Source: Candidatus Multivoradales bacterium | GTDB lineage: Bacteria > Acidobacteriota > Thermoanaerobaculia > Multivoradales > JAHEKO01 | DNA: 64,000 bases | Assembly (NCBI GenBank): GCA_965248055.1 | Contig: CBDFIJ010000004.1 | Location: 2,528,001 to 2,592,000 of the forward strand | Direction: 5' to 3' | Shown here: piece after piece, positions 48,758 through 61,414 of the stretch | Position numbering within the stretch: position 1 is the stretch's first letter | Layout of the letters: each line of letters begins with the position of its first letter | Translations under genes and position numbers: made by a program | Notes under the pieces: model-generated | Databases searched by the model: none | What the model was told of the DNA's origin: nothing | What the model saw: the letters and a program-made list of their open reading frames with translations, nothing else

Positions 48758-48856
48758 GGAAGCGCTCGGGGGCTGGTGCCTCCCGCGGTCTTCAAAACCG
48801 TTGTCCCGTTCCGGATCGGCTCGGGGGGTGGGTTCGATTCCCATGCGCTTCCGCCA
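48758..48856 (+). tRNA. selC: tRNA-Sec(UCA)
   Basis: 8-bp acceptor GGAAGCGC/GCGCTTCC-GCCA, anticodon loop CTTCAAA, long variable arm, GGTTCGATTCC T-arm, 99 nt. Confidence 0.95.
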
Positions 48857-48945
48857 CCTAAGACACTAAAAATAAGTCACTTACAAGAGAGTTACTGTCG
48901 TGGTGCGGTGCCCGGTGGAAATGATTGCATGCCCGATTTGCGCTC

Positions 48946-48998: not shown

Positions 48999-50057
48999 AT
49001 GGCAACAATCCAAAAAAGGACTTCAAAGAGCGGTCACACAAGTTATCGGGTCATGGTTCGCCTCAGAGGCTACCCAGTGCAGTACGCGACCTTCGACCGA
49101 AAGACGGATGCCAAGCGCTGGGGGCAGCAGACTGAATCTGCAATCAAAGAAGGTCGGCACTTTCGCACCAGTCAAGCCAGAAAGCACACTCTCGCAGAGC
49201 TTGTCGACCGGTATTTTGAAGAGGTACTCCCGACGAAGTTGGCGGTAACTGCCAGGGAACAGCGGCGCCATCTTGCCCGGTGGAAGCAGGAACTCGGTGC
49301 CTATGTTCTGGCGGATGTGACCCCACCACTCATTGCACAGAAGCGAGATGCGCTCGCGCGTGGCACGACGGTGCGACACGAAAAACGAGCACCAGCCACA
49401 GTCAACCGATACCTCGGCGCCTTGAGCCATGCGTTTTCGATTGCGGTAAGAGAGTGGGAATGGATGGAGCACAACCCAGTGCGACGGGTCCGCCGCCTCA
49501 AAGAACCCCGAGGTCGAGTGCGCTTTCTTTCGGACGAAGAACGCATCCGACTACTCACCGTCTGCAAGGAAAGTTCGGATCGCCGTCTCTATCCACTGGT
49601 GGTACTCGCACTGTCCACGGGAGCGCGCCAAAGAGAGTTACTGCAACTCTCTTGGAAGGACGTAGATTTTATTCGTGGCGTTGCGGTCGTGCACCACACG
49701 AAGAACAATGAACGGCGAGCACTGCCACTTTCTGAATTTGCACGCGGTGTCTTGCAGGAGTTGAAGAAAGTGGAGCGGTTGGATTCGAATCTGGTTTTTG
49801 CTGGAGTGGATGGCAGAGCTCTTTTTCCGCGCAAGCAATGGGAGCGAATATTGCGGGAAGCATCAATTGAAGATTTCAGGTTCCATGACTTGCGGCACTC
49901 CGCTGCTAGCTATCTGGCCATGAACGGTGCGACGCTGGCTGAGATCGCTGAGATTCTCGGACATAAGACACTGGCGATGGTGAAGCGATATGCACATTTG
50001 ACCGAGCAACATACCAGTGACGTGGTTGCGCGGATGAACGACAAGATCTTTGGCTAG
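48999..50057 (+). CDS. int: tyrosine recombinase/integrase
   Basis: STGARQRELL, TKN, FHDLRHSAAS, LGH...RYAH catalytic residues. N-terminal arm-binding region. Confidence 0.96.
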   Translation: MATIQKRTSKSGHTSYRVMVRLRGYPVQYATFDRKTDAKRWGQQTESAIKEGRHFRTSQARKHTLAELVDRYFEEVLPTKLAVTAREQRRHLARWKQELGAYVLADVTPPLIAQKRDALARGTTVRHEKRAPATVNRYLGALSHAFSIAVREWEWMEHNPVRRVRRLKEPRGRVRFLSDEERIRLLTVCKESSDRRLYPLVVLALSTGARQRELLQLSWKDVDFIRGVAVVHHTKNNERRALPLSEFARGVLQELKKVERLDSNLVFAGVDGRALFPRKQWERILREASIEDFRFHDLRHSAASYLAMNGATLAEIAEILGHKTLAMVKRYAHLTEQHTSDVVARMNDKIFG

Positions 50058-50281
50058 GCGCTGCATGCACGACGGCTTTCGAGCCACGCATTGAACGCAT
50101 CTACGTCAATGAGGACACGGCGCCCCACGCGCACGAGCGCCTGATTTAGTCCATTCTCCTCAGCATTGAAGATGAGCCACCGAAGGCTACCTTCGGTGAT
50201 TGCGGGTACCGTGTCGATACCGACAGGTCGCGAGGCATCAACAATCTGTTGGACAGTACGAAGTTTTTCAAATTGAATCAT
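50054..50281 (-). CDS. excisionase-like small DNA-binding protein
   Basis: GAGGAG RBS. EGSLRWLIFNAEENGL..ALVRVGRRVLIDVDAFNAWLE. Convergent with int and overlapping it by 4 nt. Confidence 0.8.
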   Translation of the reverse strand: MIQFEKLRTVQQIVDASRPVGIDTVPAITEGSLRWLIFNAEENGLNQALVRVGRRVLIDVDAFNAWLESRRACSA

Positions 50282-50462
50282 GTTCCGTGTCTCCTCAGTT
50301 GCGAGGGTATGCACACGGCTACTGCGTTGTCAAGAAAAATGACTTGTAACTAATTGATACTAAATGAGTTAGGGAGTCTTGTGTTACCCCAAACACCCCT
50401 CTGTTCTAGGTTTGTAGGGGTAAGGAGAGGAGATAAGTTGCCTACTACCAATACATTAAGGA

Positions 50463-50840
50463 GTCTCTCGGGTCGTCGGACTAGCGTCCGACTCCCGGTC
50501 TCTCTCCTCAGCAAACAAATGCGCACTTCGGAAAGTTGATTTCGTCGAAAGCCCGGGAGTCGGACGCACGACGTTCCAACCACCGGCGGACCGGTGGGGA
50601 ACCTCGGCTACCGACGACCCGAGAGACGAAACTACGTTAATAGCAAGATGCTGAGGAGGTCTTCCGCCGTCCCCCTTGACGGAATCCCGAGTACGGGATG
50701 CACGTATTTACCTGTCGCTTCACTCTCTCGTCCCCGCAACCCCACTGAACAGGTAAGGGTTGCGGATAACTCGATTCGCTCAAGCGACAGGTAGCCGCAG
50801 CTCAAGGTCGAATGTTATTAGCAAGATAGCAAACCTCAGT
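50463..50840. ncRNA. highly structured non-coding element (RNA or ssDNA), two tandem pseudoknotted domains
   Basis: Perfect stems 50463-79/50611-27 (17 bp), 50484-98/50553-67 (15 bp), 50504-13/50649-58 (10 bp, pseudoknot), 50709-20/50782-93 (12 bp) and 50734-42/50757-65 (9 bp). Repeated GTTAWTAGCAAGAT. Family and strand unknown. Confidence 0.65.
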
Positions 50841-50844
50841 ATGT

Positions 50845-51018
50845 ATGGATTACCTCGAAATGACTGAACTACAGTTGCGCGAGTTGCTTGAAAACGCCAA
50901 CAGCGATGACGTTGTTGACTTTGTCTCAGGCGAGCTTCGTCAGTCGTACGCAAACGGTGCGCGTATGCGTGATGGCAAGCGTGGGCGTGCACGGCATCGC
51001 ACCTCGCAACCCGCATAG
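50845..51018 (+). CDS. small hypothetical protein (57 aa, not in the ORF track)
   Basis: MDYLEMTELQLRELLENANSDDVVDFVSGELRQSYANGARMRDGKRGRARHRTSQPA. Amphipathic acidic helices and a basic tail. Confidence 0.55.
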   Translation: MDYLEMTELQLRELLENANSDDVVDFVSGELRQSYANGARMRDGKRGRARHRTSQPA

Positions 51019-54483: not shown

Positions 54484-56193
54484 ATGGCTCGCCGAAAACT
54501 GTCACGCGCGGAGCTGCGCAAGCGTCTGTGGATCGGCACGGCGCTTGAGGATTCCTCTCGTGTCTTTTTTCCTCCCAAGAGCCGTCAATTTCATCTCCAC
54601 GTACTCGGGCAATTCGGGCTTGGCAAGAGCAAGTTTCTCGAGCACCTCATTCGCCAGGACATCTTGAACAATGAGGGGTTATGTCTCATCGACCCGCACG
54701 GCTCGCTCTACGACGCCATCGTCACCTGGTGTGCTGACAAGCAGCTCTTTGATTCTCGACCCATTACCTTGTTTGAACCCGCGGCTGACGCTTGGACATT
54801 TGCCTTCAATCCTCTTGATTTCAAAAGCTACCCGCCTGACCGAGTCGCTGACGCAGTCGACACGATGGTTAAAGCGTGCGCGCAGGTGTGGGGTGGCGAG
54901 GATATGACACGGACTCCGCGCCTGACGCGTTTTCTCACATCGTGCTTTCACCTGTTGGGGGAGCATGGTCTCACGTTGCGAGAGGCGCTCGATTTGTGCA
55001 CGCGGGGAGAACTCCAACAACACCTCACAAGAACCATTCATGACGACGTGTTGCAGTCCGAGTGGCAGTACTACCGAAATCTTTCTGAGGCAAACTTCGT
55101 TGAGCAAACGGAGAGTACGTTGAACCGACTATCAGCGTTTCTCAGGCATCCCATGATGCGGAGAGCCATCGGACAATCGGAAGACACCATCAACCTCCGC
55201 GAGGCGATGGATGACGGGCAGGTCGTGCTTGTTAATTTGGCAGGCTTGTCGTCCGAAAACGCCCGCCTGATGGGGTCACTCCTTATCAGCGACCTTTACG
55301 CCAAAGCCCGACTTCGAACCCCTGACAAGAGTCGACCGTTTTACCTCTATGTCGATGAGTGCTACCAGTTTTTCAACGATGACATTGAGCGCATCGTCAC
55401 CGGAATGCGTAAGTTTGGTCTCCACACAACGCTTGCCCATCAAAACCTCGGCCAGCTCCGGCAGTTTGGTGGTGACGCGGTCTTTAGTGCGGTCAATCAG
55501 ATTCCCAACAAAGTCGTGTTCGGAGGGTTACCTGTTGAAGACGTGGAGTACATGGCTCGGTCGCTGTACTTAGGGGAGATCGACTATGAGGAGGCAAAGC
55601 ATTCACTCGACAAGCCAACCGTCACTCGCTACGTCCGCAGTTGGCTTCAGAATCGTTCTGAGAGTGAAAGTATTGCTCATGGAACTAGTCACCAAGCTAC
55701 CGACTCGGAGAATACGAGCGAGACGGCGAGTGCGACAGTCGACGCAGATGGTGCTGGGGTCTCCGCTACCGTGGGTTCGTCCACGACGCATGGCCATTCG
55801 GAGACTTCTGGCACGAGTACGACACACACGCACGGAAGCTCACGTGGGATGAGCGAAACCTTTGAGCCCGAGCTGGCTTGGATGACCACAGCTGTGCATT
55901 CGCTTGAAGAGCAAATACATCGCCATATGGCGGTGATGGCGGGACAGCCCGAACGTGCAGCCATCATCAAGCTGTTCAACGAGCCGCCACGTCAGGTGAA
56001 GACTCCGTTTGTACACGAGGCGATGATTGGGGAGGACTACGTTGACGCTCGGAAGGAGAAAGTTTTTGCGGCTACTCCGTATGCCCTACCCGTTGAAGAA
56101 GCAGAGAAACGGATACGCGATCGCCGCACGCGCCTATTGAAAGAAGCAAAGCAAGCCGTCAAAGACATGGAACCTGACGACTTCCTGGAGTAG
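54484..56193 (+). CDS. type IV coupling protein-like (TraD/VirD4/HerA-clade) ATPase
   Basis: Walker A GQFGLGKS, LIDPHG, Walker B FYLYVDECYQF, RKFGL..TLAHQ, S/T/G-rich C-terminal tract. No TM. Confidence 0.88.
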   Translation: MARRKLSRAELRKRLWIGTALEDSSRVFFPPKSRQFHLHVLGQFGLGKSKFLEHLIRQDILNNEGLCLIDPHGSLYDAIVTWCADKQLFDSRPITLFEPAADAWTFAFNPLDFKSYPPDRVADAVDTMVKACAQVWGGEDMTRTPRLTRFLTSCFHLLGEHGLTLREALDLCTRGELQQHLTRTIHDDVLQSEWQYYRNLSEANFVEQTESTLNRLSAFLRHPMMRRAIGQSEDTINLREAMDDGQVVLVNLAGLSSENARLMGSLLISDLYAKARLRTPDKSRPFYLYVDECYQFFNDDIERIVTGMRKFGLHTTLAHQNLGQLRQFGGDAVFSAVNQIPNKVVFGGLPVEDVEYMARSLYLGEIDYEEAKHSLDKPTVTRYVRSWLQNRSESESIAHGTSHQATDSENTSETASATVDADGAGVSATVGSSTTHGHSETSGTSTTHTHGSSRGMSETFEPELAWMTTAVHSLEEQIHRHMAVMAGQPERAAIIKLFNEPPRQVKTPFVHEAMIGEDYVDARKEKVFAATPYALPVEEAEKRIRDRRTRLLKEAKQAVKDMEPDDFLE

Positions 56194-56202
56194 CGACAAG
56201 TA

Positions 56203-57132
56203 GTGGAGAAGCGCAGACCACGGTTCAAGCGGACGAAGGTTCCTTCGTTTCGGATAACCGCCCGTGATCTTGCCATCGTCGAGCATGTGCATTCCTACCG
56301 GCTGCTTGACTCCAACCACATCGTCTCGCTCGTAGGTGACGGTAGCCCGCAGCAGATTAGACGGCGCTTGCAGCTCCTGTACCACGCTCGCTATCTCGAT
56401 CGACCACGAGTCCAGATTGCCGACTTTTACCGGCAGCCTGGCACCGTCCCTATGGTTTACGGGCTTGGGGATAAAGGAGCGGATCTCCTTGCTGAGCATG
56501 CGAGCGTCACGCGGTCAGACGTTAGCTGGACAGCCAAGAATCGAGCCATACGGTCTCGGTTCTTCCACCATACGCTCATGGTCTCCTCAATCATGGTTGC
56601 CTTTGCCATCGCGTGCAGACGCGCAGGAAATGTCCGGCTCATTCCGTGGGAGGAGATTCTCAGAGAAAAATGTCCACAGGAAACCCAAGCCGCCAGACAC
56701 CCCAAGACCTGGCGCGTGCATATCGAGCAGCACGGTTCTCTGGGGATTACGCCAGATGCCATCTTTGGCCTCCACTACCTCGACCAGCCGGATGGCAAGA
56801 ATAAGGCGTTCTTCTTTCTCGAAGCAGATCGCGGCACCATGCCTGTGTTTCGCAAGAGTCTCAAGACCACCTCTTTCTATCGCAAGCTCGCCATCTACCA
56901 CGCCACCCATGCGCAGGGTGTACACACCAAACAATTCGGCATCAAGACCTTTCGGGTACTAACTGTGACTACGGGTGCGAAGAGAATCAGGTCAATAGTT
57001 ACTGCAGTGCAACGGCTTCAGGGATTGCAGGGATTGTTTCTGTTTGCCGCAGAAGGCGCGGTTACTCGGGGCGATCCGCTGGCGACGGGGTGGAGGAATG
57101 GGCGGGAAATAGGGGTCGAGTTAGAGAGTTAA
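56203..57132 (+). CDS. replication-relaxation family (Replic_Relax, PD-(D/E)xK-type relaxase-like) protein
   Basis: N-terminal wHTH (ITARDLAI, RRRLQLL), HHTL, PDAIFGL...FFLEADRGTM, K..Y, FRVLTVT motifs. Confidence 0.85.
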   Translation: MEKRRPRFKRTKVPSFRITARDLAIVEHVHSYRLLDSNHIVSLVGDGSPQQIRRRLQLLYHARYLDRPRVQIADFYRQPGTVPMVYGLGDKGADLLAEHASVTRSDVSWTAKNRAIRSRFFHHTLMVSSIMVAFAIACRRAGNVRLIPWEEILREKCPQETQAARHPKTWRVHIEQHGSLGITPDAIFGLHYLDQPDGKNKAFFFLEADRGTMPVFRKSLKTTSFYRKLAIYHATHAQGVHTKQFGIKTFRVLTVTTGAKRIRSIVTAVQRLQGLQGLFLFAAEGAVTRGDPLATGWRNGREIGVELES

Positions 57133-59339: not shown

Positions 59340-60557
59340 TCAGGCATTTCGGTTAGATTCTTGTTGTTTCATGCGATGGTCAACGGCGATAGTCCTCCAT
59401 TTTGGCCATAGCTCGGCACTCAGCGGTCGACTGGGTTCTCCGTCGATTAACAGACGGAAGTAGAAGTAGAAATTGGGCAACGACAAGAAGTCGTCAGTCG
59501 AGAATGTGGGCGAGAACTCTTGTGCGAAGTATCGAGCGTCTTTTGCCCCGACCCGAAAGACGATGATCGTTCCAGCATTTCCGACGAGGGCTTCTCGAAT
59601 CTCGGGATCCAACTGCGAAGCGTGCTGATTGGCGGCAATGATCCCAACACCATATTTTCTGAGCTCACCGAGCATTGTGGCGGTATGCACGGTACCGAAG
59701 CTCTGAAACTCATCAGCGATCACCCAGAACGGATTGCGGTTTTCTCGCTGTGTGTCTGAGCGTGACAATGCCGAGAGCGCCAATCGTGAGAGAAGCAATG
59801 ATCCCAGAAGGTCACTCGGACCTTCCCCGAGCACCCCTTTGGAGAGGTCAGCAAGAATAATGTCTCCTCGATCCATCGCTTGTCGCAGACGAAGCGGCTC
59901 TCCTGAACCCGAGAATACCTTTCGCAACCGAGGGTCAGAGAGAATCGCACCAATCTTGTTCTGCACCGGAGCTAGAGCCATGGACTTGAAGCCCGGACTC
60001 CAACGAGCAAATTCATAGCGCCAGAATGCTGATACAGCGGGATTGTCAATGTACCGCAGGGCATCGCTGCGAAACGAGTTGTCTGAGAGAAGCCGTGGTA
60101 CTTCAAGCAACGTTCCATCCGGCATGTAGAACAAGGTCCAAAAGAGATTGGTGACGATATGAGCCAATCTTGGCCCCCACTCGTCAGACCAGATTTTCTT
60201 GAAGGTTTCAGTAAGCCCTGCGACTGCGAGTGGAAACTGACCCTTTGCTACGCCAGCAAACGGATTGAGATTCCATCCATCTACCTGTGCATCGAGAACT
60301 CTTACCGTTCGGTGCCTTTCTTCGGCAACCTTCAAAACCTCGGCAACAAGGTCGCCGTGCGGATCGAGAAGTAGGAATCCGTGCGGGCCTTCCAAGTCCT
60401 GACTGGCGATTTGTGAGAGCAAGGTGCTTTTGCCGACTCCCGTTTTTCCGACAACCCACAAATGACTGAGACGGTCTCGCTCCTTGATCCCAAACTTGCG
60501 CAGCTTGGCTCTTGAGTTGGCGTAGCCAAGGTATGTCACTCGATCTGGATCATGCAT
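59340..60557 (-). CDS. second type IV coupling protein-like ATPase
   Basis: HLWVVGKTGVGKSTLL, LLDPHGDL, WGPRL, NKIG, ADEFQSF, RKYGV..ANQ, GNAGT..FRVG motifs. GGAG RBS at ATG 60557. Confidence 0.88.
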   Translation of the reverse strand: MHDPDRVTYLGYANSRAKLRKFGIKERDRLSHLWVVGKTGVGKSTLLSQIASQDLEGPHGFLLLDPHGDLVAEVLKVAEERHRTVRVLDAQVDGWNLNPFAGVAKGQFPLAVAGLTETFKKIWSDEWGPRLAHIVTNLFWTLFYMPDGTLLEVPRLLSDNSFRSDALRYIDNPAVSAFWRYEFARWSPGFKSMALAPVQNKIGAILSDPRLRKVFSGSGEPLRLRQAMDRGDIILADLSKGVLGEGPSDLLGSLLLSRLALSALSRSDTQRENRNPFWVIADEFQSFGTVHTATMLGELRKYGVGIIAANQHASQLDPEIREALVGNAGTIIVFRVGAKDARYFAQEFSPTFSTDDFLSLPNFYFYFRLLIDGEPSRPLSAELWPKWRTIAVDHRMKQQESNRNA

Positions 60558-60609
60558 CTCTCCAGAATGCCTAACCTCCAACAACTCACAAGACCGCATT
60601 TCTTTCCCC

Positions 60610-60637
60610 AAAAGAAAGGCCCCCATTTCTGGGGACC
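60610..60637 (-). terminator. intrinsic terminator after radC
   Basis: Minus strand GGTCCCCA-gaaa-TGGGGGCC followed by TTTCTTTT. Confidence 0.6.
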
Positions 60638-60648
60638 CATTTGAACAA

Positions 60649-61338
60649 CTACCAGCCGCCTTGCTCCTTGAGGGAGACCCACTGCGTGGGGCTGCCCAGA
60701 ACCAAATGATCAACGAGTCTGACTCCAACGATGTCGCCAGCGTCAGCGGTTCTTCGTGTGAAGGACAAGTCTTCTGCCGATGGTCTTGGATCACCTGAAG
60801 GGTGTGTATGAAACAGGATCATTCCGGCAGCTCCTCGCTCAAGACCTTCGCGAAGCATTGGCCGTGGCTCCACAGCGGCTCTCGTAAGCGTGCCTTGGAA
60901 GAACACTCGGTCAGACAGGACGCGATTGCGAGCGTTTAAGAAGATTGCACCCATCACCTCCTGCACCGGCTTGCGGTACTTCAGGAAGAGGTAACGAGCA
61001 ACTGCATCTGGGTCATCCAGCAGATCACCACTAGGGATTTCTAGCCTTGCTAGTCGAACCGAGAGTTCCAGCGCTGCAGCTATTCGAGCCGAACCGCGCT
61101 TTGAAAACCCAAGACCCATCATCTCTCTCGTTGAGAGCCCGATCAGGCCACCAACTCCGCGGACGAGGCCAAAGACCTGTTCAACACACTCGCTCGAAAC
61201 CGCTGTAATCTCCGACACCAAGTCTTCATCCACAAGCTCTGAAGGTGAGATCAATCGTGTGTCGACAATCCCCCTCCTCCGAGCCTGCAGATCGGTTACC
61301 CGGTCTGTCTTGGCACTCTGGATGCCGTTCATTGTCAT
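60649..61338 (-). CDS. radC: RadC-family JAB-domain protein
   Basis: QEVM..IFLNARNR, GTL....VEPR, HTHPSGDPRPSAED, LVDHLVLG motifs. AAGGAGGT RBS. Confidence 0.92.
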   Translation of the reverse strand: MTMNGIQSAKTDRVTDLQARRRGIVDTRLISPSELVDEDLVSEITAVSSECVEQVFGLVRGVGGLIGLSTREMMGLGFSKRGSARIAAALELSVRLARLEIPSGDLLDDPDAVARYLFLKYRKPVQEVMGAIFLNARNRVLSDRVFFQGTLTRAAVEPRPMLREGLERGAAGMILFHTHPSGDPRPSAEDLSFTRRTADAGDIVGVRLVDHLVLGSPTQWVSLKEQGGW

Positions 61339-61414
61339 CACCTCCTTTCTGACTTGCGGACAGATCTCTCCCCAGAGCGCCGTATGCACCCGAGTAGAGA
61401 CAATCTGTCCTTGG

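Follow-up and report, generated by a model that had tools for sequence, protein, structure and literature searches.

The DNA analyzed here is a stretch of 64,000 nt (the window) from contig CBDFIJ010000004.1, positions 2,528,001 to 2,592,000, of a Candidatus Multivoradales bacterium (Acidobacteriota; assembly GCA_965248055.1). It carries an element of about 26 kb that is integrated at a tRNA-Sec gene and encloses a structured region. Within that region, a nested inverted repeat forming a three-way junction (domain 1), together with a palindrome upstream of it, is on balance likely to be the origin of transfer (oriT) of a module made up of a type IV coupling protein (T4CP) and a MOBC-type relaxase, acting as folded DNA. 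Domain 1 is conserved and covarying, is linked to the relaxase gene in a constant orientation, and its stems are nearly free of G-U pairs; we infer that the relaxase nicks here, which proteins bind and which strand is transferred. An oriT is favored because the cis element follows the relaxase/T4CP module in a fixed orientation, pairs as DNA and neighbors a palindrome, and because it persists in elements where genes on the opposite strand come between it and the operon. An earlier, sequence-only reading of the region had put forward two tandem pseudoknotted domains of equal topology with a selected linker, representing a new RNA family or ribozyme. This picture does not hold, as nine relatives keep domain 1 only, and it is the secondary idea of that reading, a DNA role such as an oriT for the relaxase module, that the comparative evidence favors for domain 1.

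Ten elements were compared (the window and those in the genomes labeled G001, G520, G034, G024, G455, G474, G507, G521 and G480). A covariance model of domain 1 matches all ten, with scores of 33–194 bits and relaxases that are 46–65% identical, and every match lies upstream of the relaxase gene and is co-oriented with it. The inverted repeat is 165 bp long in the window and 152–237 bp in the relatives. In seven of the ten elements a T4CP-like gene starts 0.27–0.56 kb downstream; in the other three (the window, G001 and G520) the T4CP gene is 2.4–3.9 kb away and domain 1 lies ~150–180 nt upstream of the start of a divergent xis gene, the distance to the relaxase gene being 5.6 kb in the window. 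The constant partner appears to be the transfer module rather than one type of integrase, since G520, with an integrase only 27% identical, an HTH_17-type xis and a different arrangement, still keeps domain 1. Nor need domain 1 be a leader RNA, because in the window and G001 opposite-strand genes separate it from the T4CP-relaxase operon. G024 has a further relaxase gene (35% identical), with another copy of domain 1 lying 4.5 kb upstream of it, and in the relatives there is one domain-1 hit per relaxase gene. Specificity was assessed by whole-genome model scans of five relaxase-negative and five relaxase-positive genomes: none of the former gave a domain-1 hit at E ≤ 0.1, and four of the latter did, the fifth (G474) being missed at the first-look stage and scoring 63 bits in a local search. 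A group II intron domain (RF02003) is also seen in G474, ~3 kb downstream of the relaxase gene (locus L197, 17763–17898).

These relatives are beyond the reach of ordinary DNA similarity. Among 60 related genomes nothing meaningful was found (only a 50-nt, 82% match in G054), 400 genomes of the phylum gave matches of at most 41 nt, plasmids a single match of 40 nt, and phages nothing. An integrase-anchored survey covered 80 of at least 559 relatives, in a family that uses many tRNAs, and these 80 loci showed neither the linker motif downstream of int nor similar DNA. The T4CP and a CsgG/TPR protein of the element had no relatives in viral contigs, and the relaxase as query retrieved only one plasmid record, in Bradyrhizobium. 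It was the coupling-protein search that led to a sister element in G001, of the same genus and also at tRNA-Sec, with identities to the window of 90% (integrase), 74% (xis), 49% (T4CP) and 61% (relaxase). Its xis-adjacent gap holds a homolog of domain 1 only, with a perfect outer stem of 20 bp, the inner stem and the second hairpin. Of 50 consensus pairs, nine differ from the window on both sides and none on one side, and where one arm of the outer stem has gained 2 nt, so has the other. On the xis strand of G001, the intrinsic terminator of a convergent gene abuts domain 1. A covariance model built from the window and G001 copies (R1) was scanned against 151 related genomes and gave three hits, all in genomes that bear the relaxase, the third copy being in G520, from the same order but a different family. 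Relaxase homologs occur in 11 of the 151 genomes and ten of these were examined, G459, where the homolog sits on a contig of 2.9 kb, being left out. The seven further loci all carry nested repeats and the block GCGYCCGACT, with R1 scores of 33–63 bits and always on the relaxase-sense strand.

Collecting homologs, building a covariance model and testing covariation was the course suggested by the sequence-only reading, and the domain-1 stems were found to covary strongly. In a model-fitted alignment of nine copies (50 pairs, 500 shuffles), and in figures that are generous, 94.1% of cells are paired compared to 73.4 ± 1.5% in shuffles, 34 of the 50 pairs have changed on both sides (16.4 in shuffles), and the covariation score of 0.444 (0.144 in shuffles, 0.05–0.07 in slid controls) was reached by none of the 500. 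Compensatory changes of this kind extend across three bacterial families. The long stems were described earlier as pure Watson–Crick, and this is nearly so throughout the group: the 30 core pairs of the ten copies comprise 284 Watson–Crick pairs, one G-U, 13 mismatches and two gaps. In structured RNAs, G-U is as a rule much better tolerated than the other mismatches, and its near-absence therefore favors pairing as DNA over pairing as RNA.

The most conserved block of domain 1 lies across the point where its outer and inner stems meet (Table 1). A palindrome is found 40–70 nt upstream of domain 1 in all nine relatives, and the window retains only its right half; this degenerate copy is the further stem (50384–90/50417–23) of the sequence-only reading and is visible in the fold. 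Other short repeats near domain 1 are heterogeneous among the members. TAGG repeats occur upstream in the window (three, plus two TAAGG) and in G001 (six), and none was noticed on reading the G520 flank, where no dedicated search was made. The nested repeat of G507, G521 and G480 has a 7-nt direct repeat (ACTGGCT/ACTGGTC) on either side (L198 5450–5610, L199 13216–13404, L200 5803–5966), which could serve for binding or have been left by an old duplication of the target.

The stems, hairpins and two motif copies listed by the sequence-only reading were all recovered at the same positions by a repeat finder and by folding. Compared to 2000 mononucleotide shuffles, the segment 50315–50850 contains five perfect inverted repeats of at least 9 bp (0.24 expected), three of at least 12 bp (0.0035 expected) and two of at least 15 bp (zero across all shuffles). 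The folding energy of 50340–50850 has z-scores of −6.3 (plus strand) and −8.2 (minus strand), and none of 100 dinucleotide shuffles was as stable. The structured region is single-copy in its own genome (one match). An Rfam search, the check proposed at the outset, returned no family: in the window only tRNA-Sec and one tRNA exceeded the gathering threshold, the best sub-threshold match at the structured region reached 21.6 bits (threshold, 85), and the element had no match in the loci of seven relatives. No published description of the structured element was found in the literature searched, supplements excluded.

Outside domain 1, the remaining parts of the structured region behave differently. 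Domain 2, the motif GTTAWTAGCAAGAT and both pseudoknots are absent from all nine relatives, no partner for the loop pairing of 50504..50513 exists in G001 or G520, and similarity searches of the 60 relatives, the integrase loci, the 400 phylum genomes and the relatives' loci found no domain 2 homolog. The motif copies GTTAATAGCAAGAT and GTTATTAGCAAGAT form a direct repeat with 13 of 14 positions matching; allowing up to two mismatches, the 14-mer occurs twice in the 64 kb window, where 0.21 is expected and one of 100 shuffles gave two. Used as an exact pattern, the motif pair matched one metagenome contig, at a satellite-like tandem repeat of ~22 nt and not at a homolog (marine contig L095, 4950–5800, ~850 nt of CCTAATAGTCTTAATAGCGAGAT-like units; a chance match). 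As to the pseudoknots, the 10-bp complement in domain 1 is indeed present, but it is not significant alone, because a perfect inverted repeat of at least 10 bp arises in 6% of shuffles, and it is not conserved. That of domain 2 amounts to only 4 + 4 bp around a 3-nt bulge, which by eye seems to be at chance level. Homologs lacking stems, pseudoknots and motif had been named as what would count against the sequence-only reading; the relatives lack the pseudoknots and the motif, and keep the domain-1 stems. A tandem riboswitch or ribozyme is not supported, the pseudoknot, second domain and linker motif being unconserved in G001, G520 and the seven further relatives. Domain 2, both copies of GTTAWTAGCAAGAT, the small hairpins and the 10-bp loop pairing occur in this element alone. 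The cargo genes differ between the window, G001 and G520, and these extra parts came with such genes or evolved beside them; domain 2, the 14-mers and the loop pairing may serve as binding sites or as a regulatory region for the neighboring cargo genes. Two other ideas were discarded: a minus-strand promoter within the motif (TGnTATTAA) was unsupported by the promoter scan and has no counterpart in relatives, and an anti-Shine–Dalgarno pairing with the xis ribosome-binding site has none in G001.

More distant MOBC loci offer a parallel. PF13814, the Pfam family of the relaxase, is found in 21 of 401 sampled genomes of the phylum. In five of the loci fetched from these (G149, G220, G399, G097 and G265), the relaxase gene is directly preceded by non-homologous, nested perfect repeats of 13–20 bp, which in G149 fall between it and the T4CP gene. 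Together with G435, where the gap is unstructured, they make up the assessable loci with a relaxase 27–29% identical to that of the window (tblastn). They would support the oriT reading by analogy, and no homology is claimed. In G220 and G399, a 13-bp pairing of the inner loop with the 3' flank recalls the 10-bp pairing of the window, and a 22-nt segment that follows the structure is exactly complementary to an inner-loop segment and the outer 5' arm combined (L154 9139–9242 and 9342–9354; L159 9058–9164 and 9253–9265). As this segment can pair with either, a two-state switch is possible. Separately, perfect inverted repeats of 17–25 bp with loops of ~60–100 nt were seen just upstream of int in four unrelated hosts with related integrases (L007 3727–3862; L008 629–764; L009 3756–3865, between tRNA and int; L080 3722–3857).

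A number of points weigh against domain 1 being an oriT that acts as DNA. The alignment was fitted to the model structure, which inflates the pair counts, and the ten sequences are related, so that the counts are not independent. Of the 13 core mismatches, six are A.C or C.A, which become G.U (G.T) on the complement, compared to one G.U on the sense strand, a pattern that also fits an RNA made from the complement strand; that strand gives the more stable fold in all ten copies, whether RNA or DNA parameters are used. Domain 1 is distant from the T4CP gene and close to xis in the window, G001 and G520, which makes a part in the divergent control of xis and transfer genes possible. R1 gives no significant hit to any of the five distant nested repeats, and no array of short direct repeats such as pAD1 would lead one to expect was found to be conserved.

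The greater stability of the complement in all ten copies and the bias of mismatches to G.T there suggest that the folding strand is probably the complement of the relaxase-coding strand, that is, the window minus strand. If domain 1 is an oriT, the GC-rich nested inverted repeat would fold as DNA into its three-way junction, whether by extrusion of a cruciform or as a branched hairpin of the displaced strand, with an accessory protein or the HTH domain of the relaxase bound to the palindrome. The PD-(D/E)XK relaxase would nick in or beside the junction, and the fold on the transferred strand would be reused to close the circle. In conjugation, the relaxase gene usually enters the recipient last, and on this general ground the complement would be the transferred strand; with the window minus strand as the folding strand, the relaxase gene would enter last. 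There is also a smaller chance that something less conventional is at work. The junction itself may be the relaxase substrate, branched DNA of one strand (the complement of the relaxase gene) being recognized in place of a linear nic both to begin and to finish conjugative transfer, much as by the junction-resolving nucleases that share the fold of PD-(D/E)XK relaxases, or a new structured RNA from that strand may be needed for mobilization, like the sgm-sRNA of Salmonella Genomic Island 1 (SGI1). Either, if true, would define a new class of signal in conjugation by MOBC relaxases, which are poorly understood.

Several of these features bring to mind a structured non-coding RNA, which could be a small RNA from the window minus strand or the leader of the transfer operon and would be needed for mobilization or regulate it. 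We hold this to be unlikely. Strong covariation is what such an RNA would show, yet the perfect runs of 15–21 Watson–Crick pairs per stem are unusual for functional RNAs. Strand-biased G-U pairs had been named in the sequence-only reading as a sign of RNA, and a bias is present, with six on the complement and one on the sense strand, but at most ~2% of core pair cells are G-U on either strand, fewer than are mismatched. The complement is also the more stable strand by 3–14 kcal/mol with RNA parameters (10/10 copies); in G001, however, the T-tract of the terminator abuts the domain on that strand and leaves no room for a promoter, while a transcript of the sense strand would meet the convergent gene. 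The position of domain 1 close ahead of a T4CP-like gene in seven of ten elements would suit a leader, and there is precedent for an essential small RNA beside an oriT (PMC9299015), but no sigma-70-like promoter or terminator was found in 50315–50844, and Rfam gave no match. An RNA acting with the adjacent small protein, another earlier suggestion, finds no partner in orf57, which matches no family, had no tblastn relative in the fetched loci, shows no ribosome-binding site and is probably not a partner protein.

Other roles are less probable again. It is improbable that domain 1 is a single-strand origin or a signal for priming, folded on the strand that is transferred or displaced; such a signal could coexist with an oriT and would not itself be the nick site. 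It would explain the linkage to a conjugative module, the Watson–Crick-only pairing, the strand asymmetry seen with DNA parameters in 10/10 members and the stable single-stranded DNA (ssDNA) folds of both strands (50455–50665: −63 and −64.5 kcal/mol, z −7.8 and −9.5 for plus and minus). However, the coupling to T4CP and relaxase in position and orientation and the conserved palindrome are more typical of an oriT. The CS-6-like TAGCGT (50482–87), taken earlier as a hint of an ssoA origin, lies where the outer and inner helices join rather than in a terminal loop, and TAGCG is kept in only three of ten members; an ssDNA promoter would need −35/−10 boxes, and the GC-rich stems have none, nor was a promoter-like site found on either strand of 50315–50844. 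There is a slimmer chance that the region is one of transcriptional control, with the palindrome as operator and the large repeat as a regulatory DNA structure between divergent xis and transfer genes. The palindrome is of a type common for dimeric repressors, and the position close to xis recurs in the window, G001 and G520 even though the xis and int families differ, but the fetched 12–18 kb of the other seven (G034, G024, G455, G507, G521, G480 and G474) have no xis homolog by tblastn, and arms of 13–21 bp, 100–200 nt apart and with covarying internal hairpins, are not operator-like. A functionless relic of a palindromic insertion resembling a miniature inverted-repeat transposable element, with tandem domains arising by chance, is largely refuted and deserves hardly any weight: terminal inverted repeats are present and the 7-nt direct repeat flanks the structure in three members, but the structure is single-copy in its own genome, occurs once per relaxase gene in relatives and has undergone compensatory changes across three families.

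The features of the element are given in Table 1. Its limits follow from the 3' 58 nt of tRNA-Sec, which recur ~26 kb downstream, beyond the window (window-equivalent 74732–74789). A third copy of the segment (57 nt) lies ~317 kb upstream of the element (G000:C4:2259374–2259430, locus L084) and may be the scar of an earlier integration. Among named records, the nearest integrases at tRNA-Sec are from Acidobacteriota assemblies. The xis-like gene likely starts at the ATG at 50281, which is preceded by GAGGAG; its xis role is suggested by its sequence and setting, and tblastn detected relatives in 51 of the 80 integrase loci. A possible xis promoter (TTGACA-N18-TACCCT, 50309–50338, minus strand) lies nearby but was not called by the promoter scan, and a TTGACAA box also precedes xis in G520. 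The structured gap of 530 nt comes directly after the xis-like gene, and the doubtful orf57 is followed by the CsgG/TPR protein, two proteins without family match and then the coupling protein, with the relaxase gene directly behind it.

Table 1. Features of the integrated element and its structured region (window coordinates).
Feature	Position	Strand	Description
tRNA-Sec gene	48758-48856		
attL	48800..48857	+	3' part of tRNA-Sec; 58-nt repeat, 98% identical
Tyrosine integrase (int)	48999..50057	+	Pfam Phage_integrase, E 9e-33
xis-like small HTH gene	50054..50281	-	Convergent with int; Pfam match weak only
Upstream palindrome, degenerate copy	50384..50423		Family consensus ~CTACAWAC-N3/4-GTWTGTAG; right half CTAGGTTTGTAGGGG (50406-50420) intact
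Domain 1	50463..50627		Three-way junction, candidate oriT core
Domain 1 outer stem	50463-79/50611-27		17-nt arms, 100% complementary
Most conserved block	50475-50495		Spans outer/inner stem junction; short palindrome of GTCGGRC-N2-4-GCGYCCGAC type
Domain 1 inner stem	50484-98/50553-67		15 bp perfect; extends to 21 nt at 90%
Domain 1 inner-loop segment	50504..50513		10-nt complement of 50649-58
Domain 1 hairpin	50573-50602		From fold
Motif copy 1	50636..50649	+	GTTAATAGCAAGAT
Two small hairpins	50667-82, 50684-99		From fold
Domain 2	50709..50793		12-nt arms 50709-20/50782-93 around 9-nt arms 50734-42/50757-65
Motif copy 2	50814..50827	+	GTTATTAGCAAGAT
orf57	50845-51018		Doubtful 57-codon open reading frame
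Type IV coupling protein (TraD/TrwB-like)	54484..56193	+	Pfam TrwB_AAD_bind, TraG-D_C; NCBIfam TraD weak
MOBC-type relaxase (Replic_Relax, PD-(D/E)XK family)	56203..57132	+	PF13814, E 3e-22, 79.9 bits (cut-off 25.3)

The relaxase family PF13814 is a PD-(D/E)XK family (PMC3424549) and corresponds to the MobC relaxase superfamily in CONJscan naming (PMC5357655); in streptococcal mobilizable elements, PF13814 relaxases are paired with VirD4-type coupling proteins, according to the latter source. A second T4CP/VirD4-like ATPase (59340–60794, minus strand) and a RadC-like JAB protein (60649–61389, minus strand) are also encoded by the element. Since no VirB4-type gene was seen among the scanned open reading frames (ORFs) of the element, it may be mobilizable rather than self-transmissible. 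A reverse transcriptase (RVT), the hallmark of retrons, had no Pfam match in the 30 proteins scanned, smaller ORFs being left out. Elsewhere in the assembly (G000), contigs C1–C3 (15–28 kb) have 39–43% G+C compared to 57% in the main contig, and may be plasmids, phage or contamination.

To our knowledge, MOBC is the least understood relaxase family. The available part of one source (PMC12857230) discusses only two examples, TraX of pAD1 and MobC of CloDF13, and states that no stable covalent DNA intermediate has been observed. The present case provides a covarying, sequence-defined candidate oriT, consisting of a palindrome and a nested-repeat three-way junction with a conserved core and a clear strand asymmetry of fold, in a clade of integrated elements from an environmental phylum. 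It raises the questions of where and how a PD-(D/E)XK relaxase cuts, and whether it reads DNA shape or linear sequence. Domain 1 can serve as a marker for annotating such elements, and its interest is for specialists rather than general.

Among known systems, the Frpo/ssi single-strand promoters, with which the sequence-only reading drew a parallel, are folded ssDNA next to oriT in the leading regions of plasmids. In Frpo, −35 and −10 boxes form within the folded stem, whereas no stem of domain 1 or domain 2 has boxes resembling them. The ssoA origins of rolling-circle plasmids are likewise long folded ssDNA, and their hallmark is a long hairpin whose terminal loop carries the conserved CS-6 (TAGCGT/A). 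TAGCGT is present in the window, but at a junction and not conserved, and domain 1 is GC-rich, branched, relaxase-linked and from a different phylum. The sgm-sRNA of SGI1 is, similarly, structured and non-coding, lies beside the oriT of an integrative mobilizable element whose relaxase is atypical, and transfer depends on it (PMC9299015). It is a demonstrated RNA, whereas domain 1 is known from DNA alone, and the SGI1 relaxase is unrelated, of the tyrosine recombinase type.

The oriT2 sites of pAD1 and pAM373, served by TraX, were compared by description only. Work by Francia and Clewell in 2002 is said to have placed nic of pAD1 oriT2 in an inverted repeat of ~140 bp between a TraG-like gene and traX. 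Domain 1 differs in being nested into a three-way junction, in its conserved GC-rich core and separate upstream palindrome, and in its different host phylum, integrated carrier and distance of 5.6 kb to the relaxase gene. No conserved array of 5–6 bp direct repeats was found here, while TraX of pAD1, a MOBC relaxase, binds direct repeats 70–120 bp from nic (PMC12857230). The likenesses are that both are cis sites linked to a PF13814/MOBC relaxase and a TraG/T4CP-like gene, and that both are large inverted repeats of ~140–200 bp overall. A further likeness is that TraX, according to PMC12857230, has an N-terminal winged HTH that binds away from the nick.

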